A DNA stretch of 64,000 bases from Clostridia bacterium (GTDB taxonomy: Bacteria > Bacillota > Clostridia > Oscillospirales > CAG-382), in the NCBI GenBank assembly GCA_017516825.1, contig JAFXBC010000037.1:19824-83823 (forward strand). The letters are read 5' to 3'. A program made the position numbers and the translations under genes. Shown piece by piece: positions 19,090 to 54,301 of this stretch; position 1 is the stretch's first letter, and each line of letters begins with the position of its first letter. Under the pieces are notes generated by a model that was not told where the DNA came from, ran no database searches, and worked only from the letters and a program-made list of their open reading frames with translations.

Positions 19090-19790
19090 TTGAGAGGGAC
19101 GTATGCGGGCGATTCGTGAATCGCCCCTGCTGTCACCCTGAGCGGAGCAGGCGTGGGTGTCTCTTGTGTCTTGAATGGCAACAAATAAAGCCTGCAAAGT
19201 CGAAGTTTTGCGGAAGTAGTCGTCGCAACGCGACGATGGATGGAGCAAAACCAAGGGGTGCACAGCACCCCGAAGGGGTCTCCTACGAGTCTGATCTACC
19301 CCTACATAGGTGAACTTACATCCTTTGCGATGGAACAGTTCTTTAGCCTCGGAAGGGTACATCAAACTCTTAGTAGATCCCGCCTAACGGCGGTTTTGCT
19401 TCGAACGGTGCAATGCGGCCAATGCGGATCGAAAAAACGAGGTGTATTTATGCCGCTATATGCACCTTTCCTTCTCCGCAAAACTTCGGCGCGCGCAGAG
19501 ATGTGGTCTGTATGAAGCCATAGCGACTCGAATCCGCGCTTGCTCAGGATGACCAAGTCGGCGGACGGCTTCCGGCTTATGCGTGGTATCGTTTCGCCGA
19601 CGTTAAAAACAGCAAGCTGTTTTTGTTGAGATTTGGTTCCATCCCGCGCGGCCAACCCGAAGGGGTGGTATGCTCAGAGGATGACCAAGACGGCGTATGA
19701 CCTTATATCGTACATTGCCTCATCCCGCCGACGTTAAAAACGACAAGTCGTTTTTATTGAGTTTTGGTTCGGTCCCGCTCTCCGACTTGC
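19090..19790. repeat. Composite non-coding repeat locus B (families S, T, GCTCAGGGTGAC boxes, GGGCGATTC palindrome)
   Basis: Direct comparison with 54400-54965 and 46590-46615; see findings. No ORF here has an SD or coding-like conservation. Confidence 0.65.
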
Positions 19791-39928: not shown

Positions 39929-41479
39929 TCAAGTCTTTGCCTGTACGATCTGCAGAAGCAAAACGCAGTCGTAAACGGTGAGAACGCCGTCGCCGTCCAA
40001 GTCAAAAAGGGTGTCGGACTCCGCGTTGCCCACCAGGAGCTCCAGAAGAAGCTGTACGTCGGCTTCCGTGGTGACGCCGTCCCCGTCGACGTCGTAAGCG
40101 GGAGCCTTGTCCCGGGTCTCCGTTTTCCCGCAGAGGTCACAAACACGCTCCTCCTTGCCGGGGGCAACCTCCGTCCATTCCCCGAAGGGATGGTCGATCA
40201 CGGGGGAGTAGTCTTCCGCATAGCTGTGGCCGCAGGTCTCGCAGGTGTAAAGAGTGTAGCCTTCCTCGGTACAGGTGGGGAAGAACACCTCCGTGGTATA
40301 GCTGTGACCGAAGGCGGGCTGTACCTCACCTTGATAGCTCATCCCGCAAGCACAGGTGAAGACGGTGTAGCCGTCCTTGGTGCAGGTGGGAGGGGTGACG
40401 ATGGATTCGAAAATATGGATATGCTCCACGGAGGGATCGTACTTTTCCGGGAACAGGGTGGGATACTCCAGCATCACCTTTCCGTTGCCGTAGAAATCCC
40501 CCTGGGCAACGTGGGATTGGTTAAAGGTGATCTTGGTGAAATGCTCGGGGACGGATTCCCCGCCCACCAGGAAGAAATCGTAGAAAATACCGCTGGTCTG
40601 GTCGTCCCAGGTGACGTCAACGGCGTACCAGTTGCCGTCCTCCATCTGCACCGCGTTCCAGGCGTGAGCTTCTGCGCCCTTGTCGGTGTAGCCCGCACCG
40701 GTGACGATGATGCAGGGGATATTCATCCGATTGCAGAACAGCTTGAAGGCCTTTGCGTAGCCCTCACAAACGGACAGCCCCTCCAACAGAGGGCCCACCA
40801 CGTTGTGAGCGTTCTTGCCGTCTACGTAGCTGACGGTTTGGCAAAGATGATCGTGGAAAAATTTCAGCTCGTCGTAGACGGAATATTCGGGATAGAACTC
40901 CAGGGAAGACTCCAGGGAGGTCATCACGTCCAACACTTGGGTCAGGGCTTGCCGGTAGCTCTCTTTGTCAAAATTGCCGGAGCTTTCGGGGTTGCACTGA
41001 ATGGTGATGGAGGAGACTTGGTTCCCCGCTATGGAAAGGCTTCCTCCGTATTGCACGCCCTTCATCCAGAACAGCAAGGGGTCGTCCAGCGAGGCGGCGG
41101 CGTAGGCGGGAAGCACCTGGGAGGCGATGAAGTCCATGACCTGCTGCTGGAACTCCTGGGTAGGACCCTCCGCGGGCAGGATGAAGGTGGGAATCTCCGA
41201 GGTCTCCAGGGTGAAGGCGGGATCTCCGGGCAGGGTGTTGCACACCGCCTCGTAGATGGTTCTCTGGAGATCGCTTTCCAGCTGGTCGTAATACGAATGA
41301 GAGGTGAAGGCCGCGTCCGTGTCGATGGGCTCAACGGTTCCGTAGGCCAAACGCTCCGAGGCGTAGGCCGTATCCAGGTGATATACCCTTTCCCCCTCTG
41401 CAAAAACGGGCAGAGATTGGAACAGCATCACCAAAAGCAAGCAGACTGGGAGAAGGCGGACTTTGAAAAAACGTTTCAT
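39929..41479 (-). CDS. Secreted transglutaminase-like (papain-fold) protein with Cys-rich modules and dockerin
   Basis: Start moved to ATG 41479 (MKRFFKVRLLPVCLLLVMLFQSLPVFA) with AAGGAG SD. Core CEGYAKAFKLFC...AHAWNAV...YAVDVTWDD is the Cys-His-Asp transglutaminase-core pattern. The C-terminus has 2 type A and 1 type C module plus dockerin YDVDGDGVTTEADVQLLLELLVG...DLDGDGVLTVYDCVLLLQ (39932-40096). Confidence 0.7.
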   Translation of the reverse strand: MKRFFKVRLLPVCLLLVMLFQSLPVFAEGERVYHLDTAYASERLAYGTVEPIDTDAAFTSHSYYDQLESDLQRTIYEAVCNTLPGDPAFTLETSEIPTFILPAEGPTQEFQQQVMDFIASQVLPAYAAASLDDPLLFWMKGVQYGGSLSIAGNQVSSITIQCNPESSGNFDKESYRQALTQVLDVMTSLESSLEFYPEYSVYDELKFFHDHLCQTVSYVDGKNAHNVVGPLLEGLSVCEGYAKAFKLFCNRMNIPCIIVTGAGYTDKGAEAHAWNAVQMEDGNWYAVDVTWDDQTSGIFYDFFLVGGESVPEHFTKITFNQSHVAQGDFYGNGKVMLEYPTLFPEKYDPSVEHIHIFESIVTPPTCTKDGYTVFTCACGMSYQGEVQPAFGHSYTTEVFFPTCTEEGYTLYTCETCGHSYAEDYSPVIDHPFGEWTEVAPGKEERVCDLCGKTETRDKAPAYDVDGDGVTTEADVQLLLELLVGNAESDTLFDLDGDGVLTVYDCVLLLQIVQAKT

Positions 41480-41515
41480 AGCGGTCGCTCCTTTTATGTT
41501 TACGTGTACGAATTC

Positions 41516-41544
41516 AGTATACTCCTTTGAGAAAGGTTTGTCAA
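41516..41544 (-). promoter_or_regulatory. Candidate sigma-A promoter (TTGACA-17-TATACT)
   Basis: Minus strand has TTGACA (41544-41539), a 17-nt spacer and TATACT (41521-41516). Confidence 0.5.
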
Positions 41545-41545
41545 G

Positions 41546-41577
41546 GAAAAAACACAAAACCGTCCCGGGGGACGGTT
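41546..41577 (-). terminator. Intrinsic terminator of the low-GC two-gene cassette
   Basis: ccgtccc/gggacgg hairpin, followed on the minus strand by TTTTGTGTTTTTTCC. Confidence 0.6.
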
Positions 41578-41595
41578 TTGAAACGTTTTGGATGC

Positions 41596-42027
41596 TTATT
41601 CTGCGATAGCGGCGGGACCGTGCTTGTCGTGCGTATCAAAGCTGTCGTATTTATTGCAGAAACGCTCAAAATCACTGAATAGATCTTCATAATGCAAGTA
41701 GAAACCGGTGGCGGACAGCATACCGTCATTAAAAAGATCATAGATCGATGCTTCCAACTGTAAACGGAGCGCTTCGTTTTCTTGATCGAACTCCGTTTCT
41801 TCGTACGCCACAAACGCCGTTTTCAAGGCACATTCCCATGCACTGATGTAGAGTGCATCTTCCTCCGATTCTCGGAGTGTTTCGTAGAGGGCAATCATTT
41901 CCGCCACGGGGAGCTCCGTTTCGTGCGGTTGGGGCTTTTGGAACAGGTACAACACCCACCCCGTTGAGAGACCCGCCACCGCTAACACGGCGAGGGTGAT
42001 GGAAAGAGCCTTCTTAAAAGGTGTCAT
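41596..42027 (-). CDS. Small N-terminally membrane-anchored hypothetical protein
   Basis: Start ATG 42027 (MTPFKKALSITLAVLAVAGLSTGWVLYLF) overlaps the upstream stop (ATGA). 143 aa, acidic helical-looking ectodomain, no family recognised. Confidence 0.5.
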   Translation of the reverse strand: MTPFKKALSITLAVLAVAGLSTGWVLYLFQKPQPHETELPVAEMIALYETLRESEEDALYISAWECALKTAFVAYEETEFDQENEALRLQLEASIYDLFNDGMLSATGFYLHYEDLFSDFERFCNKYDSFDTHDKHGPAAIAE

Positions 42028-42962
42028 GCGGTTTCTTCCTCCCAAAGTCGTAGTACAGGGATGATAAAGGGGCCGTTAGCTTTGCATTTGATACATTTTG
42101 TCCCTTGGGCGTTTGGCGTATGCGATTCGTTATAGCTATAGTTGCACAAAAGACAAAATACTCTATGATGACTTGTCCCCAAAGATGTGTAACGTAGAGT
42201 GTGAACGCCTTGGGCGTACCTGTAGATTTTAATATCAACGCTATTTCCAGTTCCATCCGTGTATTCTTCCGGCACGTAATTATAGTCGTGCTCGTATAAA
42301 CCATAACCGCCCCACTTTGATCTGCAACGGATTGTATTGTTGGCAAGACTGATTATCAGGCCTGAATGCTCACATTTGCCGTCTCTCCAGTAGGTAATAA
42401 TATCCCATACGTGAAGGTTCGAAATGTCTTCCGGAACGTTGTACTCTATCCTTTGCGTGTGGCTATCTGTGATGAATGCGCTCGGATCGTCAATCCAATA
42501 GGTGTTATCGGTGGAACTCATATACCAAGCGTACGAATGACAGTTATACAGGGCGGTTGGCGCATCTATTTCGATTGCATAGGGGAAAGTAGCTGCCATA
42601 TAAGCTTGCACTCTGCGGATTTCATCTGCAGAGGCTTCAGAGTATAGCTTTGCGGTAACCTCCGTCCCGTCGGTTGTGTACAGCGTTGTCGTTGAGGAAA
42701 AGCGCGCCATTGTTGCGGAATCGCATGAAAGACTTGAATCGGTTGGAAGGCTCGGCAAAGTTTGTCCGGTTAGCGATGGCGAAAGAGGCATCTTGCATCC
42801 GGAGTCTGATTCGAGCCCGAAAGAGAACTCGTCAGTTGAGAACTCAATCTCTTTTTCTGCAACATTAGCTTCTGACGCTGCGGCGTTCAGAGTGAGAGTA
42901 GCTATGAGAAAGAATGATATTATCCAAAACCATTTGACGCTATTTTTTGATGTTGTTTCCAT
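42024..42962 (-). CDS. Secreted protein with putative papain-like (NlpC/P60-CHAP-like) Cys-His domain and C-terminal Cys module
   Basis: Start at METTSKNSVKWFWIISFFLIATLTLNAAAS (42962). LYNCHSYAWY ... WDIITYWRDGKCEHSGLII ... SKWGGYGLYEH resembles a Cys...His amidase/peptidase core. The C-terminal HRVFCLLCNYSYNESHT..GTKCIKCK resembles the Cys modules of the neighbouring genes. Markedly lower GC. Confidence 0.4.
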   Translation of the reverse strand: METTSKNSVKWFWIISFFLIATLTLNAAASEANVAEKEIEFSTDEFSFGLESDSGCKMPLSPSLTGQTLPSLPTDSSLSCDSATMARFSSTTTLYTTDGTEVTAKLYSEASADEIRRVQAYMAATFPYAIEIDAPTALYNCHSYAWYMSSTDNTYWIDDPSAFITDSHTQRIEYNVPEDISNLHVWDIITYWRDGKCEHSGLIISLANNTIRCRSKWGGYGLYEHDYNYVPEEYTDGTGNSVDIKIYRYAQGVHTLRYTSLGTSHHRVFCLLCNYSYNESHTPNAQGTKCIKCKANGPFIIPVLRLWEEETA

Positions 42963-43167
42963 AGGATTCTCCTTGTGAATATTTTTGTCTGGCAACGTTA
43001 TTGCGGTAAATATTATAACCGTGCATCGGTAAACATCGGACACACCTCCCAATCCTGCCTATAGTATACCATACCGTCCCTGCCGGGTCAATTGCAGAAT
43101 ACTACAAATGAAACCGCCGCAATTTGTATGTGTTAAACAAATTCGTTTTCGTCCTCTCAAAACCCTA

Positions 43168-43196
43168 TTGCAAAACGGGAGAAAATGTTGTATACT
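43168..43196 (+). promoter_or_regulatory. Candidate sigma-A promoter of cysE (TTGCAA-17-TATACT)
   Basis: TTGCAA 43168-43173, a 17-nt spacer and TATACT 43191-43196. Confidence 0.5.
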
Positions 43197-43230
43197 GAAA
43201 CCAACGAGCTTCCAAGGGAGGAACTGTGCA

Positions 43231-44139
43231 ATGATCAAGGAATGGTTGGGTAAAAACGCAAGCGAGGTGGCAGAGCAGCTCATCGCCCGCAATCGGGAAA
43301 ACGAATCGGACGCCGCCGTGGCGGGCTTCGGCGTGAAGGACAGAGTCTACCGCGCCACGGAGCTTCTCCGCAAGGCCATGTTTCCCAATATCTTCTCCGA
43401 GGAAGTGATCCCCGAGGCGTTTCTGCCCGCCTTCGTCACGGACAGTCTGCAGAAGGCGGCCATGCTTCTTTACGGGGTGATCAGCGAGGTCTATTGCTAC
43501 ACCTGCGGCGGCGACTCTCCTGTGGGGGTGACCTGCGGGGATTGCCAGGAGAAGGCGGACAAGGCCGTCTGTGCTTTTATGGATACTTTGCCCGAGGTGA
43601 CTCGTTTGCTGAATACGGACATCCTTGCCGCTTATCTGGGGGACCCTGCCGCAAGGGGAAAGACGGAGATCATGCTGGCCTATCCCTCCTTTGAGGCGGT
43701 GAGCATCTTCCGCTTGGCCCACAGCCTCCACGTGCTGGGAGTGCCGCTGATTCCCCGCATGATGACGGAATACGCTCACCAAAAGACGGGAATCGACATC
43801 CATCCCGGGGCCACGGTGGGAGAGAGCTTTTTCATCGACCACGGCACCGGCGTGGTCATCGGCGAGACCTGCACCATCGGCAGGGAAGTGAAGCTGTATC
43901 AGGGGGTGACCCTGGGCGCAAAAAGCTTCGAAATGGATGAAAACGGCAACCCCGTCAAGGGGATCAAGCGCCACCCCGACATCGGTGACCGCGTGGTGAT
44001 CTACGCAGGCGCCACCATTCTGGGAGGCAATACCCGCATCGGAGACGACAGCGTCATCGGCGGTAACGTGTGGCTGACCCATTCCGTCCCTGCGGGCAGT
44101 AAGGTATACAACACCCTCTCCAACAAGGAGAAGACTTAA
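43231..44139 (+). CDS. cysE: Serine O-acetyltransferase
   Basis: Start ATG 43231 (MIKEWLG) with AAGGGAGGAA SD. Hexapeptide-repeat C-terminus GIDIHPGATVGESFFIDHGTGVVIGETCTIG...RHPDIGDRVVIYAGATILG. Confidence 0.85.
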   Translation: MIKEWLGKNASEVAEQLIARNRENESDAAVAGFGVKDRVYRATELLRKAMFPNIFSEEVIPEAFLPAFVTDSLQKAAMLLYGVISEVYCYTCGGDSPVGVTCGDCQEKADKAVCAFMDTLPEVTRLLNTDILAAYLGDPAARGKTEIMLAYPSFEAVSIFRLAHSLHVLGVPLIPRMMTEYAHQKTGIDIHPGATVGESFFIDHGTGVVIGETCTIGREVKLYQGVTLGAKSFEMDENGNPVKGIKRHPDIGDRVVIYAGATILGGNTRIGDDSVIGGNVWLTHSVPAGSKVYNTLSNKEKT

Positions 44140-44178
44140 AAAAACGCCGCAACGCGGCCGAAACCCGAACCAAAGCCG

Positions 44179-44212
44179 AAGAGCCGCGTCAAAACGGCTC
44201 TTTTTGCATTTT
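44179..44212 (+). terminator. Intrinsic terminator after cysE
   Basis: gagccg-cgtcaaaa-cggctc followed by TTTTTGCATTTTT. Confidence 0.6.
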
Positions 44213-44246
44213 TGGCAACAACTCGGCAACAAAGCCGTTGTATGCT
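44212..44246 (+). promoter_or_regulatory. Candidate response-regulator operator (2x TTGGCAACAA-like, 11-bp phase) plus -10 TATGCT upstream of the TCS operon
   Basis: TTGGCAACAA 44212-44221, TCGGCAACAA 44223-44232, then 8 nt, then TATGCT 44241-44246. There is no canonical -35. Confidence 0.4.
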
Positions 44247-44277
44247 GTTCTTAAAGGAAAGAAGGGAGGCGTGACTT

Positions 44278-44925
44278 ATGGCAAAGATCCTCATTGCGGA
44301 GGACGAGCCGGCTATCAACGATCTCATCAAATGGAATTTGGAGCTGGTGGGGCATACCTGCCACCAGGTGTTCGACGGCAGAGCCGCCCTGGAGGCCGCC
44401 GGGACGGGAGCGTTTGACCTGCTGATCCTGGATGTGATGATGCCCGCCCTCTCCGGCTTTGAGATCATGCCCCACCTGAAGGGACAGCCCGTGATCTTCG
44501 TCACCGCCAAGGCGGGGGTACAGGACAGGCTGAGAGGCTTGCAATTGGGGGCGGACGATTACATCACCAAGCCCTTTGAGATCCTGGAGCTGGTGGAGCG
44601 GGTGAAGGCGGTGTTGCGCCGCACCAAGGGGGAGATGAAGGAGTTTTCCTTCGACGACATCCGCGTAGAGCTCACCAACCGCCGCGTCTACAAGGGCGGG
44701 GTGGAGATCCCCTTGAAGCCCAAGGAGTTCGACCTTCTGGAGACCCTCATCCACAACCGCAACCTGGCACTCTCCAGAGAGAAGCTCATCGAATTGGTGT
44801 GGAACTTTGACTACGAAGGAGATTCCCGTACCGTGGACGTTCACGTACAGCGCTTGCGGCGCAAGCTGGGCATCGCCCACCGCCTGCAAACGGTGTATAA
44901 AACGGGATACCGCTTACAGGTATGA
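44278..44925 (+). CDS. OmpR/PhoB-family response regulator
   Basis: 215 aa. Receiver domain (ILIAEDEP...DLLILDVMMP...TAK) plus a winged-helix C-terminus (VDVHVQRLRRKL...GYRL). Confidence 0.9.
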   Translation: MAKILIAEDEPAINDLIKWNLELVGHTCHQVFDGRAALEAAGTGAFDLLILDVMMPALSGFEIMPHLKGQPVIFVTAKAGVQDRLRGLQLGADDYITKPFEILELVERVKAVLRRTKGEMKEFSFDDIRVELTNRRVYKGGVEIPLKPKEFDLLETLIHNRNLALSREKLIELVWNFDYEGDSRTVDVHVQRLRRKLGIAHRLQTVYKTGYRLQV

Positions 44926-44993
44926 AAAACGGATCGTTTTTTATACCTGCAACCGCCCCCCACAGGGGGGCTACCGAGAAAAAGGACGTTGGT

Positions 44994-46379
44994 ATGAAAC
45001 TTCGATTCTGGCAAAAAGCCTATCTCCTCACCCTGGCGCTGTTTCTGATCTGTATCAACGTGGGTATTCTGTCGTTGACGGTATACACCCACGGAAAGAA
45101 CGTTCGGGCCGCCGAGGAGGCCGTGAAGGCACAGCAATATTACGTGGCCATGTCCTTTGAGCGGGATATGGAATACCTGGAAAGCAACGGAGGCTCCGTT
45201 GCCCTGCTGATGGAGGGCTTCGGGGCTCATTACCGCGACAAAGGGCTTTCCATCGCCTTTTTGCAGGGGGAGGAGACCTTGTATTCCACCATTTCCTTCC
45301 CCTACGAGATGGAAAACGATACCCTCACCCACCTGGACGTGGAGGGGAAGCGGCATATCCTCATTTCCTCCTCGGTGTGCGATGGAGCGTATCAAATCAT
45401 CATCGCCAAGAACGTGGACTCTCTGGACGTGGAGTTCCGCAGTCTCATGGTGCTGTATCTGCTGACGGCGTTGGCGGTGTCCTTGTTCCTGGCGGTATGC
45501 TTGTATTTCGTGTTGCGGAAGCTTTCCAAGCCCTTGGATTCCCTGCGGGAGACCACCGTGGCCATCGGGGCGGGGGATTTCTCCGTCACCGCCAAAGAGA
45601 TGGGCAACGACGAGTTCACTCTGCTGGCAAAAAGCTTCAACGCCATGCTTGCAAAGATCAACAGCCAGATGGCGGATCTCGCCTCGGATGCGGAGAAGAA
45701 GCAAATGCTGGTGGACAACATGGCCCACGAGCTACGGACTCCCCTCACCAGCATATACGGCTACGCGGAATATCTGGAAAAGGCTCCCGTCACCGAGGAA
45801 AAACGGGTGACGGCGGCGCAATACATCATGTCCCAGGCGGGGAGATTGCAGAAGATCTCCGAATTGCTTCTGGACAGCGCCTATATCCGGGGCAACCCTC
45901 CCGAGATGGGGGAGGTGGCTCTGCACACCCTTCTTTCCCAGGTGGCGGCACAGCTTGCCTTTTTCGGGGAAGGACGGGGCGTGACCCTGCGGGCAGAAGG
46001 GGAACAGACCGTCATTCATGGCAACGAGACCTTGCTTTCCATGCTGTTCTTCAACCTGGCGGAAAACGCCGTGAAGGCTTGCAGTCAAGGGGGCGAGGTG
46101 GTGCTTTCCTGTAAGGACGGCCGAGCCACCGTCAGAGACAACGGCAAGGGCATGACGGAGGAGCAGATCGCCCACGTCACGGAGCCCTTCTACCGTACGG
46201 ATAAATCCCGCTCCCGTGCAGAAGGCGGGGCAGGCTTGGGGTTGGCATTGTGCAAGCAAATTGTCGATCTCCACGGAGCGGAGATGAAGATATCCTCCAA
46301 GCCGGGAGAGGGGACGGAAATTTCCCTCACTTTTACAACTTGGCAACAACCCGGCGACGGGTTGGCAACAAACGGGTGA
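44994..46379 (+). CDS. Sensor histidine kinase (HAMP-HisKA-HATPase)
   Basis: Two TM segments, a HAMP-like segment, H-box MAHELRTPLTSI, N box NLAENAVKA and G boxes DNGKGM / GGAGLGLALC. The start is either ATG 44994 (AAAGGA SD) or ATG 44922 overlapping the regulator stop. Confidence 0.85.
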   Translation: MKLRFWQKAYLLTLALFLICINVGILSLTVYTHGKNVRAAEEAVKAQQYYVAMSFERDMEYLESNGGSVALLMEGFGAHYRDKGLSIAFLQGEETLYSTISFPYEMENDTLTHLDVEGKRHILISSSVCDGAYQIIIAKNVDSLDVEFRSLMVLYLLTALAVSLFLAVCLYFVLRKLSKPLDSLRETTVAIGAGDFSVTAKEMGNDEFTLLAKSFNAMLAKINSQMADLASDAEKKQMLVDNMAHELRTPLTSIYGYAEYLEKAPVTEEKRVTAAQYIMSQAGRLQKISELLLDSAYIRGNPPEMGEVALHTLLSQVAAQLAFFGEGRGVTLRAEGEQTVIHGNETLLSMLFFNLAENAVKACSQGGEVVLSCKDGRATVRDNGKGMTEEQIAHVTEPFYRTDKSRSRAEGGAGLGLALCKQIVDLHGAEMKISSKPGEGTEISLTFTTWQQPGDGLATNG

Positions 46380-46385
46380 TAAAGT
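46340..46385 (+). promoter_or_regulatory. Second candidate operator (2x TTGGCAACAA, 22-bp phase) plus extended -10 TGaTAAAGT, upstream of the 3-paralog cluster
   Basis: TTGGCAACAA 46340-46349 and 46362-46371, then 8 nt, then TAAAGT 46380-46385. The box-to--10 spacing is the same as at 44212-44246. It lies in the last codons of the kinase gene. Confidence 0.35.
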
Positions 46386-46675
46386 GAAGGTGAAAAAGGG
46401 GAAAGGGTAGCGCGCAGGTCGGATGGCGGAAAGTCGTTTCGTAGCGTAACGCTTTGCTATGGAGACGAACCGAGGAAGGGCACAAATGCGACCATCTCTC
46501 CCGCACAGGGTACGGTGAAAAAACGCTTTATGCCAACCTCATTGCGCGGAAGTATGGCTTGATTTTAGTCCATGCATCATGCGTAATCGTAGGGGCGATT
46601 CACGAATCGCCCGTTCGGGCGCCCTCCCGAACCAAAGGCAACCCTTCAAATCTTTCCCGAAAGGAGTCCTATCCC

Positions 46676-48508
46676 ATGAAAAAATTCATACTGATCGCAG
46701 TTTGCCTTCTGCTGGTGGCCTTACTCACCCTCGGGGTGTGTATGTACGCCATCGGGGAGAACAAGGACCTCTCCAAGCCCTACGACATGGGAAGCGAGAT
46801 CACCGTGACACCTCCCGAGGACACCCCCACGGCACAGGAGCAAATGGAACAAAAATTCTCCGTCTACAACCACGTCACGGAAGAAAACGGCAAAAAGATC
46901 CTCACCCTTTTCTCCGAAGAACAAGCGGAGGAACAATGGGCGAAACGTGAAAACGGGGAAGACTTCCGCCTTACTTACGATGAAATTCTGTTTCTCATCG
47001 ATCAGTCCCGGCGGCTTTACGAAAGCTACGATGAGATCGTGCTGACCAACGCTTCGGAATACGGGATCTTTGGCGAACCTGCCCCGGGCGCCTACGTGGT
47101 CAAGCGCAAGGACGTGGATCCTTCCGGGCTGACCTATATGGAGGAGCAGAAGGCGTGCGCCGAAGCAACCAGAGAAGTGGCACAGATCGCCGCTTACCGC
47201 GTTGCCATGCTGGATTCCCGTATGCGGAAGGCGGTTTCCGTTGTATTCGGATATTCAGGAGTTTACGGGAATTGGAACCAACTGTATTTTGAAGGGGAAT
47301 CGTATACGGGGAACGGCATCGTGGAAGTGCAGTACGTGCTTTGGGCCATGGTCCCCGACGACGTGGAATGGGAGTCCGAGGAGGCGTACCGCACTGCGCT
47401 GAAGGAACAGCTGGAGCATTCTTCGTGGTCGGGTCACGTGCAGTGCGTCCATCCCCAAGTGCCCTACCTTTGCCTGGAATTTTCCTTCGGGGCCAAATCG
47501 ATCCCCGGATGGATCACCGTTCTCGACGGCTCTATCCGTGCCTTGAAGTGGGGAGAGACCCCGGAATCCGATGACCGATACGGCCCCATGGAGCATGCCA
47601 AAAACGAAGGAGCCCTTTTGTGTCCCGATTCTTCCACAGCCCCGGCTTGGGAACTGCGGAAGTCCTATTTCAAGACGGAGAACGCTTCCTATGCGTCCGT
47701 CTATTTCAGCGGCGAAACCAACGGACAGCGGCATTTTAACGACGTAGCCTATTCCTTCTCCGTGGAGACCCTGGGGGATCTTGACACCGTTTTGAAGAAA
47801 TGGAACGACCCCAAAACGCCCCGTATGCAGGCGGGAGATCTGCCGTATTTCGTGGCGGACCTGGGGAATGGCACCGCCGTAGCGGTGATTGCCCATCACG
47901 ATTATCCCGGATATGCGTATATCTTCCCCGATGACGACGCAGGCTTTTATCTTCCCACGATAGGTACCCAGATCTTTTCCCCGGTATACAGAGATCCTTT
48001 TTCGGAAACCGTAAACGCAACCACGGAATTCGTCAAATGCCTTCCCGAGGAAACGCTTCACGCTATGTGGCAGCAGTTCGGAGCCGCCGTCATGAAACGC
48101 CATTGGCAGTCGGTGGACCTTATGGAAGTGAAGGACAAGTCTTATAACGGCTGGTATGCCACCTATTTCCGTTCCGAGGGAGAAACCGCTTGGAAGAAAT
48201 ACGACGAAGCGGTCACCTCTTTCTTGAACACCGCCAAGGCAGAGCTGGGGGAGGACATGACCGTGGAAGCCTGCATGGCGCTGGAGGCTTACGCCCGGCT
48301 GGAAAAGACGTGCAAGAGCATGACCTATTATTACGGCTTCATCCTGACGGAATGTGCTTATTTCCCGGATTCCTTCCGGGCACAGCTGATGGTGGAGCTG
48401 TTGAAGCAAAACAAGCCCAAGCTGCAAGCCCGTTGCACGAAGCAGGGCTTGACGGACCCCGGGGAGATCGCCGAGGCGGTATTTGCGGATCCGTCGTGTA
48501 TGCGATGA
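46676..48508 (+). CDS. Membrane-anchored protein family X, paralog 1 (conserved N-module, variable C-region)
   Basis: Start ATG 46676 (MKKFILIAVCLLLVALLTLGVCMYAIGENKD...) with AAGGAG SD. 610 aa, no family recognised. Confidence 0.7.
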   Translation: MKKFILIAVCLLLVALLTLGVCMYAIGENKDLSKPYDMGSEITVTPPEDTPTAQEQMEQKFSVYNHVTEENGKKILTLFSEEQAEEQWAKRENGEDFRLTYDEILFLIDQSRRLYESYDEIVLTNASEYGIFGEPAPGAYVVKRKDVDPSGLTYMEEQKACAEATREVAQIAAYRVAMLDSRMRKAVSVVFGYSGVYGNWNQLYFEGESYTGNGIVEVQYVLWAMVPDDVEWESEEAYRTALKEQLEHSSWSGHVQCVHPQVPYLCLEFSFGAKSIPGWITVLDGSIRALKWGETPESDDRYGPMEHAKNEGALLCPDSSTAPAWELRKSYFKTENASYASVYFSGETNGQRHFNDVAYSFSVETLGDLDTVLKKWNDPKTPRMQAGDLPYFVADLGNGTAVAVIAHHDYPGYAYIFPDDDAGFYLPTIGTQIFSPVYRDPFSETVNATTEFVKCLPEETLHAMWQQFGAAVMKRHWQSVDLMEVKDKSYNGWYATYFRSEGETAWKKYDEAVTSFLNTAKAELGEDMTVEACMALEAYARLEKTCKSMTYYYGFILTECAYFPDSFRAQLMVELLKQNKPKLQARCTKQGLTDPGEIAEAVFADPSCMR

Positions 48509-48521
48509 AAGGAGGTTTCCC

Positions 48522-49880
48522 ATGAAAAAATTCATATTGATCGCAGTTTGTCTTCTGCTGGTTGCTTTACTCACTCTCGGGGTGTGTATGTACGCCATCG
48601 GGGAGAACAAGGACATCTCCAAGCCCTACGACATGGGAAGCGAGATCACCGTGACACCTCCCGAGGACACCCCCGAGGCCCAGAAGGAAATGGAAAAGAA
48701 ATTTTCCGTCTACAACCACGTTTCCGAAACGATAAGCGGCAAAAAGATTCTCACCCTTTTCTCTGAAGAGCAAGCGGAGGAACAATGGGCGAAACGCCAA
48801 AACGGAGAGCAGTTCCGCCTCACATACGACGAGATCCTGTTTCTGATCGGCGATTCTCTGCGGCTTTACGAGACCTACGACGCCATTGTGCTGACCAACG
48901 CACAGGAATATGATCTGCTGAACCCCGCAATGGGAGAGACCATCCATCCGGAGCTGGCGGAGATCGTCACTTCCTTCCGCGGGGAGGCGGACGAGCACTA
49001 CCAACGGATGGCCGATGTTGGGCAGATCGCCGTCTACCGTCTGGCTTTGCTGGATTCCCGCTTGCGGAAAGCGGAGTTCGAAGGGCTCCGCTTGGACGGG
49101 GAGCGTTACGTTGATCGGGTTACCGTGGAGGGCGTTTCTTCCGAGCAGTTTGCCTTCGTAGAGCCCGACGGGGAGATGAGCGCGGGAGAGATCCTCTATA
49201 ACCCTTCTTATCTCCACGGCTCCTATTGGGTGTTGATGCCGGAGGATGGGAAGATCGCAAACGAGGAGGCTTATCTGGAGTCTCTGGTGAAGCACCTGCT
49301 GTGCGCGGAGATCGGCGGAAACGTTCTTCAGAATTTTACCGCGGAATATCCCGTGCTGAAGCTGGAGACTTATCCATGCGTGGTGGATCCGCAGACCTTC
49401 GAAACCGCTTATATGCTTGAAGCACATCAGCCCCTGTGGGAGCTGAAGGCGTCTTACCTGAGTCCTTACCTATCGCCCTCTTCTTCCACGGCGTACTATC
49501 CCGAGCTGACACTCCGTAAGGGAGCCCACACCGCAAGGAAGCTGTTCCTGACCTTTGAGGTCTTCGGAGCCCTGGATCCCCGGGATGCCATTGTTGTCGC
49601 GGCGAAGACGGGAGAGCAGGTGGGCACCCTGGAAGCAGGGGAAGAATTCATCGAGCTAGACCTGAACAACGGTACCTCAATCCTGCTCCCGACAACCGAC
49701 GCTTACGACGGAGAGACCCTTGCTGCCGCGGCCATGGTGGAATCCGCTTATGACTATGAAAGCAATGCCCTTCGCCTGTGCATCCCCAAAAGTCTGGCGG
49801 ATGCGTTGCGGGATCTGGCTCTCCACGGTACTGCCGACAGTCCGTACAGCGATCTGGTGATTTACACCACCATCGGATAA
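48522..49880 (+). CDS. Membrane-anchored protein family X, paralog 2
   Basis: Start ATG 48522 with AAAGGAGG SD. 452 aa. The first ~110 aa are nearly identical to paralogs 1 and 3. Confidence 0.7.
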   Translation: MKKFILIAVCLLLVALLTLGVCMYAIGENKDISKPYDMGSEITVTPPEDTPEAQKEMEKKFSVYNHVSETISGKKILTLFSEEQAEEQWAKRQNGEQFRLTYDEILFLIGDSLRLYETYDAIVLTNAQEYDLLNPAMGETIHPELAEIVTSFRGEADEHYQRMADVGQIAVYRLALLDSRLRKAEFEGLRLDGERYVDRVTVEGVSSEQFAFVEPDGEMSAGEILYNPSYLHGSYWVLMPEDGKIANEEAYLESLVKHLLCAEIGGNVLQNFTAEYPVLKLETYPCVVDPQTFETAYMLEAHQPLWELKASYLSPYLSPSSSTAYYPELTLRKGAHTARKLFLTFEVFGALDPRDAIVVAAKTGEQVGTLEAGEEFIELDLNNGTSILLPTTDAYDGETLAAAAMVESAYDYESNALRLCIPKSLADALRDLALHGTADSPYSDLVIYTTIG

Positions 49881-49901
49881 CACGATAAAAGGAGGTTTCC
49901 C

Positions 49902-51656
49902 ATGAAAAAATTCATATTGATCGCGGTTTGTCTTCTGCTGGTTGCCTTACTCACTCTCGGGGTATGTATGTACGCCATCGGGGAGAACAAGGACATCTCC
50001 AAGCCCTACGACATGGGAAGCGAGATCACCGTGACACCTCCCGAGGACACTCCCACGGCACAGGAGCAAATGGAACAAAAATTCTCCGTCTACAACCACG
50101 TGACGGAAGAAAACGGCAAGAAGATCCTCACCCTGTTCTCGGAGGAACAAGCGGAGGAGCAATGGACGAAACGCCAAAGCGGAGAAGACTTCCGTCTCAC
50201 TTACGATGAAATCTTATTCCTCATCAACGATTCCGCAAGGCTTTACGAGACCTACGACGAGATCGTGTTGACCAACTCCTACGCCTACGGAATCTCCGAG
50301 CTTTCGGAATCCTCCTTGACGGGGGAACGGATTGTCAGCAACAAGGGGGATCTGACGGGGCTGACCTATACGGCAGAGAGAAGCGCTTACGAAAAATACA
50401 GCCGGGACGTGACTGCCATTGCTGCTTACCGCGTTGCCATGCTGGATTCCCGTATGCGGAAGGGATACAGAGTATGGCATTGTGCTTCCGGCATATACGC
50501 AGAATCTGTGCATCTGCTTTTTGAAGATGAAGTGAAGAAGCTCGTAGAAGGTTCTTCCGCTTCTCCTACGGGATGCATCTGGACTTTGATTCCCGATGAT
50601 CTGGAATGGGAATCCGAGGAGGCGTACCGCAAAGCCTTGCGGGAGCAGCAGTCGCACGTATACAATATGTGGGGGCCCTGTGAGCATTCACAGGTTGCCT
50701 ATACCTCAATAGTTTTTTCTATGGAGTGTTTCCAAATAGGGTTTATCCAAGTGCCGGAGGTTGAGGACTCCTCTTTTGCGCAAATTGTTGGCATTCGTTG
50801 GGGAGAGCCGGAGCCTTATGAGTCAGGGAGCAGCAGCCCTCATCAAGTGAATTTGAGCGGCCTTCTGTTCCCCGATAAAATGCTCGCTTGGGAGCTTAAG
50901 GGGAGCTATCTGGCATTTGACGAGGAAGAGCCTGCGGATCTTTACCTCTGGCGGAACGGTGGCAAGTATTCTACCCAACTGCAAGCCCTTTCCCCGGAAG
51001 AAAAGGCTTCTTTGCAGAAATGGCTGGGCGATACCGACGGGATCGTCGAACGATACAAGACTGCCGCGGAGTCCTATACCGTAGAAGAAGCGGGAGGCTA
51101 TTTCCTGGAGGTGGAGCTGGGCAACGGGACTTCGTTGCTGTATCCGCCCTTGGCAACCTACAAGGGAGAATACGCTCTCGGTTGCTTTGTGGAGACGAAG
51201 CTGAGATCTTATGACACCTACGAAAACCTTTCCTTCCGCCCCTGCCTCACGCAGGAGTTCGTTCTGGAGCTTAACAGCTTGACTCTGCCGGATTACGAAC
51301 GCTTATTGCCACCCCCACCGGTGGAATCTATGACGGGCGACGTTTTCGTGGCGTGGCAAACGGATACCATACCCTATTTGGTGCTGGGTGAGGACGGGAG
51401 GGGCTGTCTGAAGGGGATCACGGACGATAATCGGGTGCTTCCCGTAAAGTATGCGTTCCCGGACACAGGACGCTTGTACGTGTGGCACGAGGACGAATCC
51501 GGCGAAAAACAGATCCGGCTTGTTTTCAGAGAGTATCGGGACGGCGTATATTGCTATTGCGCCGAGGAATCCCAAGGGTTCGGTGCCTATAACTTCCCTG
51601 ATATGGCGCTCTTTTACGCATACGATCGCTCTTTTTACGCATACGATCGCTCTTAA
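49902..51656 (+). CDS. Membrane-anchored protein family X, paralog 3
   Basis: 584 aa with AAAGGAGG SD. The C-terminus carries a 21-bp tandem duplication (FYAYDRS FYAYDRS, about 51609-51650). Confidence 0.7.
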   Translation: MKKFILIAVCLLLVALLTLGVCMYAIGENKDISKPYDMGSEITVTPPEDTPTAQEQMEQKFSVYNHVTEENGKKILTLFSEEQAEEQWTKRQSGEDFRLTYDEILFLINDSARLYETYDEIVLTNSYAYGISELSESSLTGERIVSNKGDLTGLTYTAERSAYEKYSRDVTAIAAYRVAMLDSRMRKGYRVWHCASGIYAESVHLLFEDEVKKLVEGSSASPTGCIWTLIPDDLEWESEEAYRKALREQQSHVYNMWGPCEHSQVAYTSIVFSMECFQIGFIQVPEVEDSSFAQIVGIRWGEPEPYESGSSSPHQVNLSGLLFPDKMLAWELKGSYLAFDEEEPADLYLWRNGGKYSTQLQALSPEEKASLQKWLGDTDGIVERYKTAAESYTVEEAGGYFLEVELGNGTSLLYPPLATYKGEYALGCFVETKLRSYDTYENLSFRPCLTQEFVLELNSLTLPDYERLLPPPPVESMTGDVFVAWQTDTIPYLVLGEDGRGCLKGITDDNRVLPVKYAFPDTGRLYVWHEDESGEKQIRLVFREYRDGVYCYCAEESQGFGAYNFPDMALFYAYDRSFYAYDRS

Positions 51657-51660
51657 TGAC

Positions 51661-51696
51661 AAAAAGACCTTGCACCCCGCAAGGTCTTTTCGTTTT
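51661..51696 (+). terminator. Intrinsic terminator after paralog 3
   Basis: aagaccttgc-accc-gcaaggtctt followed by TTCGTTTT. Confidence 0.6.
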
Positions 51697-51697
51697 C

Positions 51698-51740
51698 CTT
51701 TCCGAAAACGGCAGTTTTCGGCAATCGGTTTCTTTGGAGG
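51698..51740 (+). repeat. Dispersed palindromic repeat R1 (copy 2)
   Basis: cctttccgaaaacggcagttttcggcaatcggtttctttggag matches the reverse complement of 4271-4313. Confidence 0.7.
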
Positions 51741-51766
51741 GTTAAAGGGAAGGATCCCTTACGTTC

Positions 51767-52510
51767 TCAATACAGCTCGTTTTCCGGGTCAATGTGGGCG
51801 CCGTTTAAGAGCATCTCAAAATGGAGATGGGGGCGTTCCGCCTTTTCCGAAAGGGCGGTGTTCCCCACGTAGCCCAGCACCTGCCCTGTGGCAAGCTGTT
51901 TCCCCGGGGTGATGCCCAGGGCAAGGTTGGCATCCAGATTGGCGTACACCGTTACCAGGCCGTACTCGTGCTTCACCGTGACGGTGACCCCCAAAAGGGG
52001 ATCCTCTTTTACGGATTCCACCACCCCGGGGGCGTAGCAAAGCACCGGATCGCCAAGCTCTGCGGTGATGTCAATGCCTGCGTGGGTGCGGTAGTCCTGC
52101 ATGGTCTGGGAGAACACCAGCTTGTCCAGGGCGCATTCCTTCTGTACCTCGCCGCCCTCCACGGGAAGCACGTAGGAAGGCTCCTCGTTGATCACGGGAG
52201 ACTCCGAAGAGGTGTCCTCGGTAACACCGCTGTTTTCCCCGAACACGGGCTGCTCCTCGCTCTCCTCCGGGGGCAGGGGAATGATCACCTGGGGACGGGA
52301 GTTCTCCGGGGGCAGGATCTCCCCGAAGGAAAACTCCGGGGTGCTGTAGGACGGCAGTTGGTCGGTACTGCGGCTTAAGGCAAAAATGCTTGCGGTGGCC
52401 ACCCCCACGATCAACAGCGCCATGGCCAGATAGAGGTACACGGCGTAGCGGGAAAGGCGGCCGCCGAAGGGGCCGTTTACTTGTTCTTGGGTTTCTTTGG
52501 GATCAAACAT
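51767..52510 (-). CDS. spoIIQ: M23/LytM-family metallopeptidase, SpoIIQ-like (membrane anchored)
   Basis: Start ATG 52510 with AGGAGG SD. TM YLYLAMALLIVGVATASIFAL. Intact HxxxD (HAGIDI) and HxH (HLHFE) motifs. It lies immediately downstream of spoIID, as in C. difficile. Confidence 0.6.
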   Translation of the reverse strand: MFDPKETQEQVNGPFGGRLSRYAVYLYLAMALLIVGVATASIFALSRSTDQLPSYSTPEFSFGEILPPENSRPQVIIPLPPEESEEQPVFGENSGVTEDTSSESPVINEEPSYVLPVEGGEVQKECALDKLVFSQTMQDYRTHAGIDITAELGDPVLCYAPGVVESVKEDPLLGVTVTVKHEYGLVTVYANLDANLALGITPGKQLATGQVLGYVGNTALSEKAERPHLHFEMLLNGAHIDPENELY

Positions 52511-52567
52511 AAAAAACCTCCTGTTTGGTTTCGCGTCCTTAGTTTGCACCAAACGGGAGGTCTTTAT

Positions 52568-53419
52568 TCAAGTTTCAAGGGAGAGCTTCGGAAAGTAAAA
52601 GGCCAGGATCTCCGTGTAGTCCTTTCCCTCACGGGCCAGAATGGAAGCGCCGTTCAGGCTCAACCCAACTCCGTTCCCTCTGCCGTGACAGAGGATATGT
52701 ACCTTTTCCACTCCCAAGGAAAGGGTGAAGCAGGTAGAGGGAAGCCCCAGCAGGCTTTGCACCTGTTCCCCGGTGAGGGAGCCGCTTTCCCACTCCAACA
52801 CCTGTACCCGCCCGAAGCGGTCGTATCCCCAGAACAGATCCTCGGGAGGGATCCGAGAGGGGATCCCCAAAAGGGAAAGCAGCTTTTCTCTTGAAAAGGT
52901 GAAGGCTTCCGTCACCCCCTCCTCCAGGTTTTTGACCCCTTGGAGGTAAGGCACCTCCACCCCGTAAACGCTGAAGGCGGAGGCGGTGTATTTCCCCGCG
53001 CTTTCGTGGAACAAGGCGGCGGCAGGACGGCCTTGGTAGGTGAGCACTTGCCCCGCCGTCTCCGCCGCGGCGGAAACGTTTTCGGGGGAGAACTCCGCCG
53101 TGGCAAAGCCCAGACAGCAAGCGGGATCGTTACATAAAGCGGCATTTTTATGTACGGGGGTATGCTCCTTGCAGTACAGCGCACGGCTGCGGATGGCCAC
53201 GGCGATGGCCTTGCGGGCTTCCGTCTCCGGGGGCAGGGAAAGGGTCTCCATCACCCCGATGACGTAATCCTCCAAGGGCAGGGAAAAGATCTCCCCGCTT
53301 TCTGCATCCAGAACCCCCAGAAAGGGCTCCTCCTCCCGATCCGGGAGCAACGCGGAGGCGCGGGGCAGCAGTACCACGGCGGCGGCCAGAACAAAAAAAC
53401 AAAGCAGATAGTTCTTCAT
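52568..53419 (-). CDS. spoIID: Stage II sporulation protein D (SpoIID/LytB lytic transglycosylase)
   Basis: Signal/TM, then LEDYVIGVM...EARKAIAVAIRSRALY..., LTYQGRPAAALFHESAGKYTASA, typical of the SpoIID domain. Start at ATG 53419 rather than the GTG at 53440. Confidence 0.85.
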   Translation of the reverse strand: MKNYLLCFFVLAAAVVLLPRASALLPDREEEPFLGVLDAESGEIFSLPLEDYVIGVMETLSLPPETEARKAIAVAIRSRALYCKEHTPVHKNAALCNDPACCLGFATAEFSPENVSAAAETAGQVLTYQGRPAAALFHESAGKYTASAFSVYGVEVPYLQGVKNLEEGVTEAFTFSREKLLSLLGIPSRIPPEDLFWGYDRFGRVQVLEWESGSLTGEQVQSLLGLPSTCFTLSLGVEKVHILCHGRGNGVGLSLNGASILAREGKDYTEILAFYFPKLSLET

Positions 53420-53456
53420 GGGGAGGCTCGTCCTTTCCACGTCACTTGTCTGCTTT

Positions 53457-53485
53457 ATTGTATTCCGTTTTGTACCCGTTTATGC
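53457..53485 (-). promoter_or_regulatory. Candidate sigma-E-type promoter upstream of spoIID
   Basis: Minus strand GCATAAA-14 nt-AATACAAT, compared with the B. subtilis sigma-E consensus kmATATT-14-CATACAmT. Confidence 0.35.
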
Positions 53486-54301
53486 TTCCGCCTCCGGAAG
53501 GTCTTCCGCCGCAGGGTGGGTCTCCAGCTCCAGGGAGTAGATGCGGGTGAAAATATAAATGATAAAGGCGATGGACAGCATGGCGTATAGGATCTCCGTC
53601 AAGCCGGTCTCTCCTCGGATAAACTCCCAAAGCAAGGGCACGTTGTAGGAGGACAGCAGGATCACCGCCACGTGGCCGATGATGAAATACCAGGTGGCGC
53701 CTCCCTTGCCGGTGCGGAATTTGGCCTCCTGCAGGAAGAACAGCATGGTGGCGATGATGGCAAGGATACGGTATCCGCCGTGGCTTGCCAAGGGCATGGT
53801 GCTGTGGTCGATAAAATCCCCCAGAATGCGGAAAGCGCAGAACAGCACGGGGAACAGGGACAGGAACAGCCCCAGGGCCTTCTTTTCGCTCAAGGGCATC
53901 CAGGCGGCCAACAGCAGGAAGTACACCGCACAGCCCAGGGCGAACAGCTTCACCAGCAGGGAAACGGTGGGGTTCACGTTGACCAGACGATCCTCCACGG
54001 GGGCAAAATAGGTGTAGTACACCGTTACGATCACCACGGTGAGAATGGCAAAGCCGCATACCGCGGAGCTGAAGGTCACCGAGGGGAGCCCGGGGGGAAG
54101 GGCAGGGGCGAGACGGCGGCCCAGCAGGAAGGCGATGATGGCCCCCGCACCACAGCAAAAGGCCGTGGAAATGCCGAACAATAGCTCACCGGAACGGCTG
54201 TCTCCCACCCAGAACCGTACCAGAACGGGTACCGCCGCCAACAGGATCAGAAACAGCAAGGAAAAATATTTTACACTTTTTGGAAGCTTGGAAACTGCCA
54301 T
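53480..54301 (-). CDS. Hypothetical polytopic membrane protein (~8 TM)
   Basis: 273 aa, hydrophobic throughout, no recognised motif. Confidence 0.6.
   Translation of the reverse strand: MAVSKLPKSVKYFSLLFLILLAAVPVLVRFWVGDSRSGELLFGISTAFCCGAGAIIAFLLGRRLAPALPPGLPSVTFSSAVCGFAILTVVIVTVYYTYFAPVEDRLVNVNPTVSLLVKLFALGCAVYFLLLAAWMPLSEKKALGLFLSLFPVLFCAFRILGDFIDHSTMPLASHGGYRILAIIATMLFFLQEAKFRTGKGGATWYFIIGHVAVILLSSYNVPLLWEFIRGETGLTEILYAMLSIAFIIYIFTRIYSLELETHPAAEDLPEAEA

Follow-up and report, generated by a model that had tools for sequence, protein, structure and literature searches.

VanR-VanS loci have the gene order regulator, kinase, targets, with the autoregulatory promoter PvanR before the regulator gene and PvanH, which has more binding sites, after the kinase gene. 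The core binding region of PhoP from Bacillus subtilis, reportedly described in work from the Hulett laboratory, contains four TT(A/T/C)ACA-like repeats that recur every 11 bp, at approximately -60 to -20. Other two-component systems, such as MtrAB-LpqB and WalRK-YycHI, have an adjacent lipoprotein or accessory gene. Here we analyzed a stretch of 64,000 nucleotides from a Clostridia bacterium (contig JAFXBC010000037.1, hereafter the window), which contains a two-component system of a response regulator and a sensor histidine kinase followed by three paralogous genes, X1, X2 and X3, of a family referred to as family X. Short direct repeats (boxes) are found upstream of the regulator gene (site 1) and at the 3' end of the kinase gene (site 2). 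We consider it likely, with a probability of roughly 0.72, that the boxes are half-sites for the adjacent OmpR/PhoB-family regulator, which would activate its own operon and X1-X2-X3; binding, transcription starts and activation are inferred.

The window shares the VanRS gene order and has one predicted promoter (P1) before the regulator gene and a second (P2) with more sites at the kinase end. It departs from VanRS in its target genes, which are unrelated, and in a second promoter that overlaps the coding end of the kinase, and its proteins score far below the VanR and VanS cutoffs. Site 2 (46329..46371, plus strand) resembles the PhoP region of B. subtilis in having four units with an 11-bp period, which span approximately -63 to -21 of predicted P2 and have cores reading TTACAA, CAACAA or GATAA; by this analogy, the four units would imply two regulator dimers at the target promoter. 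The regulon is different, however, and the units here have a distinct flanking TTGG/TCGG part. As in MtrAB-LpqB and WalRK-YycHI, the gene for a secreted or lipid-anchored protein follows right after the kinase gene in a syntenic position (70 of 79 related loci), and by analogy a family X protein could feed back on the sensor. Yet no similarity between family X and LpqB or YycH/I was detected, and the family has its own predicted regulator-dependent promoter and has often expanded into tandem paralogues whose C-terminal parts vary.

Escherichia coli PhoB also binds at least two direct repeats with an 11-bp period located just 5' of the -10 and replacing the -35 (PMC3973317, PMC4832192), and direct repeats with this period are the general binding pattern of the OmpR/PhoB family (PMC4832192). 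PhoB is a winged-helix regulator of the same family that binds head-to-tail and recruits region 4 of sigma-70, as the window regulator would do. Positive autoregulation is likewise a property of PhoB and is predicted here. The two systems differ in their box (TTGGCAACAA here, CTGTCAT for PhoB), in the window kinase being without a PAS domain, and in there being no pst or pho genes nearby. The arrangement is pho-box-like (PhoB, B. subtilis PhoP) in function and vanRS-PvanH-like in operon logic, its adjacent secreted protein recalls MtrAB-LpqB, and by score it belongs to none of these systems. The mechanism itself is textbook, but this particular two-component system is previously undescribed, and the locus offers a precise and testable cis-regulatory code for it (box consensus, spacing and likely regulon). 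Uncultured Clostridia from the guts of ruminants and other animals carry it widely.

Direct repeats at two predicted promoters

The features of the locus are listed in Table 1. The site 1 boxes have a period of 11 bp (start to start) and span approximately -41 to -21 of predicted P1, with the regulator ATG at 44278 downstream of it. Hexamers located 16-18 nt 5' of either -10 match TTGACA at no more than two of six positions, and a two-hexamer promoter scan called no promoter at site 1 or site 2. An earlier prediction made from the letters of the window (the original prediction) had named these boxes, placed them 8 nt before a -10 at both sites and noted that there is no -35. Read directly from the sequence, its coordinates, box sequences and distances are all correct, and the hexamer comparison and the promoter scan bear out the missing -35. 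Two properties of pho-box-type promoters are thus seen at both sites: the repeats have a period of 10-11 bp, which is kept in relatives, and they abut the -10 (at 8 nt) in place of a -35, as they do in nearly all relatives.

Table 1. Features of the regulator-kinase-X locus in the window, in order of position.
Feature	Position	Strand	Sequence or description	Basis
Intrinsic terminator of serine-acetyltransferase-like gene	44178..44213 (44178-44203 plus T-run)	+	9-bp stem GAAGAGCCG..CGGCTCTTT, then T-run	Terminator scan
Site 1, R1 box	44212-44221	+	TTGGCAACAA	Read from sequence
Site 1, R2 box	44223-44232	+	TCGGCAACAA; single C between R1 and R2	Read from sequence
P1 -10 hexamer	44241-44246	+	TATGCT; 8 nt (AGCCGTTG) after R2; predicted start near 44253
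Response regulator	44278..44925	+	OmpR/PhoB family, 215 residues	Pfam Response_reg and Trans_reg_C
Sensor histidine kinase	44994..46379	+	Two transmembrane segments, HAMP, HisKA, HATPase_c; 461 residues	Pfam, open reading frame list, C-terminal tail comparison
Site 2, unit U1	46329	+	ACTTTTACAA-C	Read from sequence
Site 2, unit U2	46340-46349	+	TTGGCAACAA-C	Read from sequence
Site 2, unit U3	46351	+	CCGGCGACGG-G, degenerate	Read from sequence
Site 2, unit U4	46362-46371	+	TTGGCAACAA	Read from sequence
P2 extended -10	46377..46385 (hexamer TAAAGT 46380-46385)	+	TGaTAAAGT; 8 nt (ACGGGTGA) after U4; predicted start near 46392
X1 5' leader	46392..46675	+	Approximately 284 nt, vs. 25-110 nt in most relatives
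X1	46676-48508	+		Open reading frame list
X2	48522-49880	+		Open reading frame list
X3	49902-51656	+		Open reading frame list
Terminator closing the X operon	51664..51696	+	AAGACCTTGC-ACCCC-GCAAGGTCTT, then TTCGTTTT	Read directly from sequence

Site 2 had been proposed to be a pair of boxes 22 bp apart. Both boxes are real and have this distance, but the array has four units, and the spacing equals two 11-bp periods because the degenerate U3 sits between the exact boxes. Both exact boxes are located inside the last 14 kinase codons, past the end of the HATPase_c domain (residue 447 of 461). The TGA at 46377-46379 doubles as the kinase stop codon and as the TG of the extended -10 of P2.

Conservation in related loci

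A search with the kinase gave 79 related loci in metagenome-assembled genomes (MAGs) of gut Oscillospiraceae/Eubacteriales from ruminants, rabbit, chicken and other animals, with 45-98% identity. The regulator-kinase-X order is kept in 70 of the 79, and most exceptions are cut by contig ends. The architecture at both positions is conserved even where the kinases share only 45-65% identity.

Approximately 70 of 74 loci have the same layout at site 1, i.e., a 10-nt box, 1 nt, a second 10-nt box, 8 nt and a TATAAT that is usually preceded by TG. The distance between box and -10 is 7 nt in three orthologous loci and 8 nt in the others. When the sites are aligned, the information content is limited to the two boxes and TGnTATAAT, with flanks near zero.

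At site 2, four 11-bp units are found in identical register in 62 of 75 loci, and a displaced array is present in seven more. The array in relatives typically reads TTTTACAAG TTGGCAATAAG TCGGAGATAAG TTGGCGATAT, begins 6 nt short of where the catalytic domain ends and is followed after 8 nt by TACAAT or TATAAT; the -10 is exactly 8 nt past unit 4 in approximately 67 loci. Of these 62 loci, 58 have the kinase stop inside unit 2, where it is provided by the TGA of TTGA (22 loci) or the TAA of CAATAA (36 loci); units 3-4 and the -10 are therefore non-coding there, yet conserved. In the lineage of the window CAACAA replaces CAATAA in the array. This removes the stop, and the kinase reading frame thereby becomes ten codons longer and extends to the TGA of the extended -10. 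No kinase-X fusions were found when the kinase stop positions of the related loci were compared. Judged from the sequences of the 79 loci, a chance origin of the box architecture appears very unlikely.

One relative with 97% identity (L001) has an insertion of approximately 75 nt and a duplication of the last approximately 22 kinase codons (positions 7270-7530 of that locus). Its kinase ends with ...SLVF and a stop, and an intact box array with its -10 is kept 3' of the duplicated segment.

Frequency and specificity of the motif

The exact 10-mer TTGGCAACAA is present in three copies in the window, all at sites 1 and 2. If one mismatch is allowed, there are 16 matches compared to 4.55 expected, and none of 100 shuffles reached 16. 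This excess probably reflects a codon or composition bias that is missed by dinucleotide shuffles. The 12 one-mismatch matches outside both sites are scattered singletons on both strands.

A matrix was trained on the site-1 pairs of 36 orthologous loci, to which neither the window nor its two near relatives contributed. The site at 44212 reaches 26.1 bits with this matrix, the one at 46329 reaches 24.3 bits and the U3-U4 pair (46351) reaches 10.6 bits, while the best score elsewhere in the window is 8.3 bits; the maxima in 20 mononucleotide shuffles have a mean of 10.2 bits and reach 16.6 bits at the highest. A strict consensus scan of both strands of 885 kb of related loci gave 53 matches, of which 49 fall on site 1, one falls on site 2 and three lie farther upstream of a regulator gene, with none outside regulator-upstream or kinase 3'-end positions.

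According to the original prediction, the box should not be frequent across genomes without positional bias. This holds for the box in its promoter context, which is found nearly only before such regulators: TACAANTTGGCAACA-N9-TATAAT (exact) has 14 matches in 596 Gb of genomes, with ten before orthologous regulators, two before a distant regulator-kinase pair in Clostridium and two in Burkholderiales coding DNA. The bare tandem GGCAACAA-N-T-N-GGCAACA, without a -10, occurs at approximately the chance rate in the genome collection and is by itself uninformative. Scanning for GGCAACAANTNGGCAACA gave at least 120 matches, with approximately 280 expected by chance for 16 fixed bases. Only one of the matches listed is upstream of a regulator gene, and among the others listed none has a qualifying -10 at the right distance; one has five of six bases, but without the key A2 or T6.

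The one-mismatch excess and the chance-level frequency of the bare tandem are what would be seen if the repeats were a product of chance or composition. Alternatively, they might be bound by another factor, e.g., as a sigma-54 -24/-12 element, since TGGCA-type motifs 11 bp apart mimic GG-N10-GC and site 1 does have GG and GC 11 nt apart. Against this stand the conservation of position, spacing and -10 across approximately 70 loci and the covariation of the boxes with the recognition helix of the adjacent regulator (see below), which make such an origin highly improbable. In addition, a sigma-54 promoter depends on an AAA+ activator and lacks a conserved TATAAT. The sigma-54 promoter was rejected, as 23 related loci with TTGAT or TTGTT boxes, and thus no GG or GC, keep both the architecture and the TATAAT.

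A further single copy of the motif had been pointed out at approximately 19177. The sequence TGGCAACAA is indeed present at 19176-19184, but it is a half-site only and probably irrelevant. The lone half-site ATGGCAACAA at 19176 has no partner at +/-11 and no -10, and it was rejected as a target of the regulator and treated as chance. Searching the literature for the box sequences gave unrelated primers only.

On the minus strand of the Clostridium ganghwense and C. aestuarii loci (L083 and L084), TTACAAtTTGGCAACAA-N8-TATAAT is located upstream of a regulator gene. The regulator of this pair is 40-45% identical and the kinase approximately 26%, and the 3' end of the kinase gene has a four-unit array followed by TACAAT. 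The downstream gene encodes a different secreted protein of 446 residues with a weak hint of a DPPIV_N-like propeller. Both species are cultured and, with their distant module of the same box, represent an experimental entry point.

Covariation between regulator and box

Within a locus, the two sites carry boxes of matching type, with 27 GGC/GGC and 17 GAT/GAT among 60 loci. In the regulator alignment, mutual information with box type peaks at residue 192, which is found in the helix RTVDVHxQ[R/K/Q]LR; the recognition helix of the window regulator, RTVDVHVQRLRRKL, carries Arg192. At position 4, the proximal box has G in 47 of 47 loci with Arg192 and A or T in 23 of 23 loci with Lys/Gln192. According to a neighbour-joining tree, residue 192 and the box base have each undergone approximately four independent changes, and these coincide.

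Residue 192 aligns with Arg201 of E. coli PhoB, which hydrogen-bonds one guanine per pho-box half-site (PMC3973317), and Arg192 may in the same way contact the guanine of each half-site here. For this alignment, the numbering of PhoB was verified using residues that PMC3973317 names. The acidic activation-loop residues Glu177 and Glu191 of PhoB (PMC3973317) correspond to Glu168 and Asp182 in the window regulator. The natural Arg/Lys/Gln192-G/A/T covariation represents a clean example of specificity rewiring in OmpR/PhoB regulators, and possibly of paralogue insulation.

Many MAGs hold two or three regulator-kinase-X modules (e.g., L013/L062, L014/L063, L027/L057, L077/L060, L031/L059 and L001/L039/L078). 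Among ten multi-module genomes, eight combine a module of the Arg192/TTGG type with one that has Lys or Gln192 and TTGA or TTGT. JAZNPH01, a near relative of the window, has three modules, and the source genome of the window therefore probably has more than one as well. We tentatively suggest, as a possibility rather than as the expected outcome, that the modules are paralogous signalling cassettes of gut Oscillospiraceae in which a one-residue/one-base switch (Arg192/TTGG vs. Lys/Gln192/TTGA or TTGT) prevents cross-talk. Family X would then be a new regulator-controlled and rapidly diversifying surface protein, whose N-terminal domain might feed back on the sensor domain of the kinase.

Proposed mechanism and alternatives

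In the proposed mechanism, the kinase would phosphorylate the regulator, which would bind the 11-bp direct repeats as head-to-tail dimers, so that the repeats occupy the place of the missing -35. One dimer would be bound at P1 (boxes 44212-44232, -10 at 44241) and two at P2 (units 46329-46371, extended -10 at 46377-46385), the latter promoter overlapping the 3' end of the kinase gene. The bound regulator would recruit RNA polymerase, as PhoB does at pho boxes, and the predicted outcome is positive autoregulation of the two-component system together with induction of X1-X2-X3 (46676-51656). OmpR/PhoB-type repeats replacing a -35, with autoregulation and control of the paralogues, were also the core of the original prediction, and the conserved architecture, the cross-species matrix and the covariation all support it. 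Metatranscriptome contigs from four gut runs span X1-X3 (46660-51607) and include hardly any of the regulator and kinase genes, which fits a separate and stronger P2.

Several points weigh against this mechanism. The RNA contigs carry no 5'-end information and none covers 46392-46580, and no start is mapped. The kinase gene and X1 are not separated by a terminator, and read-through from P1 can therefore also supply the X genes. The function of P2 is less certain in this organism than in its relatives, because the leader of X1 is unusually long (284 nt) and contains inserted hairpin repeats. The -10 hexamers of the window lineage (TATGCT and TAAAGT) are weak compared to the TATAAT of relatives, the bare tandem occurs at roughly the chance rate, and the covariation between residue and base is partly confounded by shared ancestry. 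Finally, a regulator bound to boxes at -21 to -41 could just as well obstruct RNA polymerase and cause repression.

The last point is the basis of the main rival explanation, in which the same regulator binds the boxes but represses, by occluding RNA polymerase at extended -10 promoters, with negative autoregulation and repression of the X genes as the result. The boxes do overlap the core promoter, and most orthologues have a strong TGnTATAAT that is able to work without a -35. However, a -35 is absent from all relatives, the fixed 8-nt phasing is the class II activator arrangement of this regulator family, and the regulator retains the acidic patch of the PhoB activation loop (PMC3973317). 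The -10 elements of the window are moreover too weak for much unaided transcription, and the X genes are expressed in gut samples. Repression is therefore considered unlikely.

It could also be argued that site 2 has no promoter function, that P1 read-through alone transcribes the X genes, and that the array is, e.g., a roadblock, a part of the kinase C-terminal coding sequence or a sink for the regulator. The lack of a terminator before X1 would allow this, no RNA contig begins at 46392, and unit 1 overlaps conserved kinase codons. Yet neither the exact 8-nt distance between unit 4 and the -10, nor the conservation of units 3-4 and the -10 where they are non-coding, is readily reconciled with it, and the same is true for RNA contigs that lie on X1-X3 with hardly any on the regulator and kinase genes. 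We find this explanation quite improbable and favor activation by the regulator from both sites.

Regulator and kinase

The regulator has Pfam matches to Response_reg (8.2e-24) and Trans_reg_C (4.2e-24), which places it in the OmpR/PhoB family, and its closest relatives in the PDB are RegX3, PhoP, PrrA and MtrA. Both the regulator and the kinase are below every NCBIfam equivalog cutoff, and the two-component system is therefore counted as unnamed. The PhoB model gives 189 bits (cutoff 296) and the PhoR model 162 bits (cutoff 334), while the VanR models give 112-151 bits (cutoffs 350-500) and the VanS model 117 bits (cutoff 400). A phosphate regulon proper (PhoB/PhoR) was rejected based on these scores and on the neighbouring genes, which are a cysE-like gene and family X, with no pst or pho genes nearby. 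VanR/VanS identity was rejected with scores far under the cutoffs.

The cysE-like gene is located upstream (43108-44139), and its matches to the NCBIfam cysE/EpsC models are below the curated cutoffs. Judging from its sequence, the terminator at 44178..44213 would insulate the regulator operon from transcription coming from upstream.

A 72-nt insertion with two small hairpins inside is found between the regulator stop and the kinase start (44919-44999), bordered by a 9-nt direct duplication GGTATGAAA (44919-44927 and 44991-44999). Both the window and L001 have this insertion; L032, in which the regulator and kinase genes overlap by ATGA, lacks it. An alternative kinase start at 44922 overlaps the regulator stop. 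The insertion keeps the reading frame, which leaves two possible kinase starts, 44994 and, for a protein longer by 24 residues, 44922.

Family X and its leader

X1-X3 are tandem paralogues separated by gaps of 13 and 21 nt and belong to an uncharacterised secreted or membrane-anchored family. They share approximately 130 near-identical N-terminal residues, comprising a signal/anchor and a conserved domain, and their C-terminal parts diverge. The near-identical stretches of the genes are 46676-47070, 48522-48920 and 49902-50300. This pattern suggests gene conversion or a recent duplication of the 5' parts, with C-terminal domains that would be diversifying. In the candidate lipobox region (consensus L-[ASTG]-[GAS]-C), most X orthologues have LTGC, LAGC, LCGC or LGGC after a hydrophobic stretch; X1-X3 of the window read LGVC, and a few relatives are without Cys.

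Sequence searches of Pfam, NCBIfam and the PDB gave no relatives of family X, and the entries retrieved in a large protein search were all labelled 'hypothetical protein'. The AlphaFold model has a mean pLDDT of 57.5 and is confident for the N-terminal domain only, and a Foldseek search with this model against the PDB gave no match at E<0.05. The locus nevertheless ties this unannotated protein family to a defined signalling input.

An Rfam scan of 40000-54000 gave no match at E<=1, and the X1 leader thus corresponds to no known riboswitch or leader. Compared to two close relatives, the leader differs by gain or loss of palindromic hairpin repeats, and its fold z-score of -2.97 is largely explained by these repeats. 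The palindromic repeat GGGCGATTCACGAATCGCCC is located at 46593-46612 in the leader, and an inverted intergenic copy is found at 19107-19126, approximately 50 nt before the lone TGGCAACAA. It is matched by 133 contigs of one metatranscriptome (X27) in many contexts, and its copies vary among the window, L032 and L001. From its sequence it looks like an element of the REP/MITE type (repetitive extragenic palindrome or miniature inverted-repeat transposable element) that is common in the community. At the end of X3, a 21-nt tandem duplication is found at 51609-51653, and the C-terminus reads ...FYAYDRSFYAYDRS.

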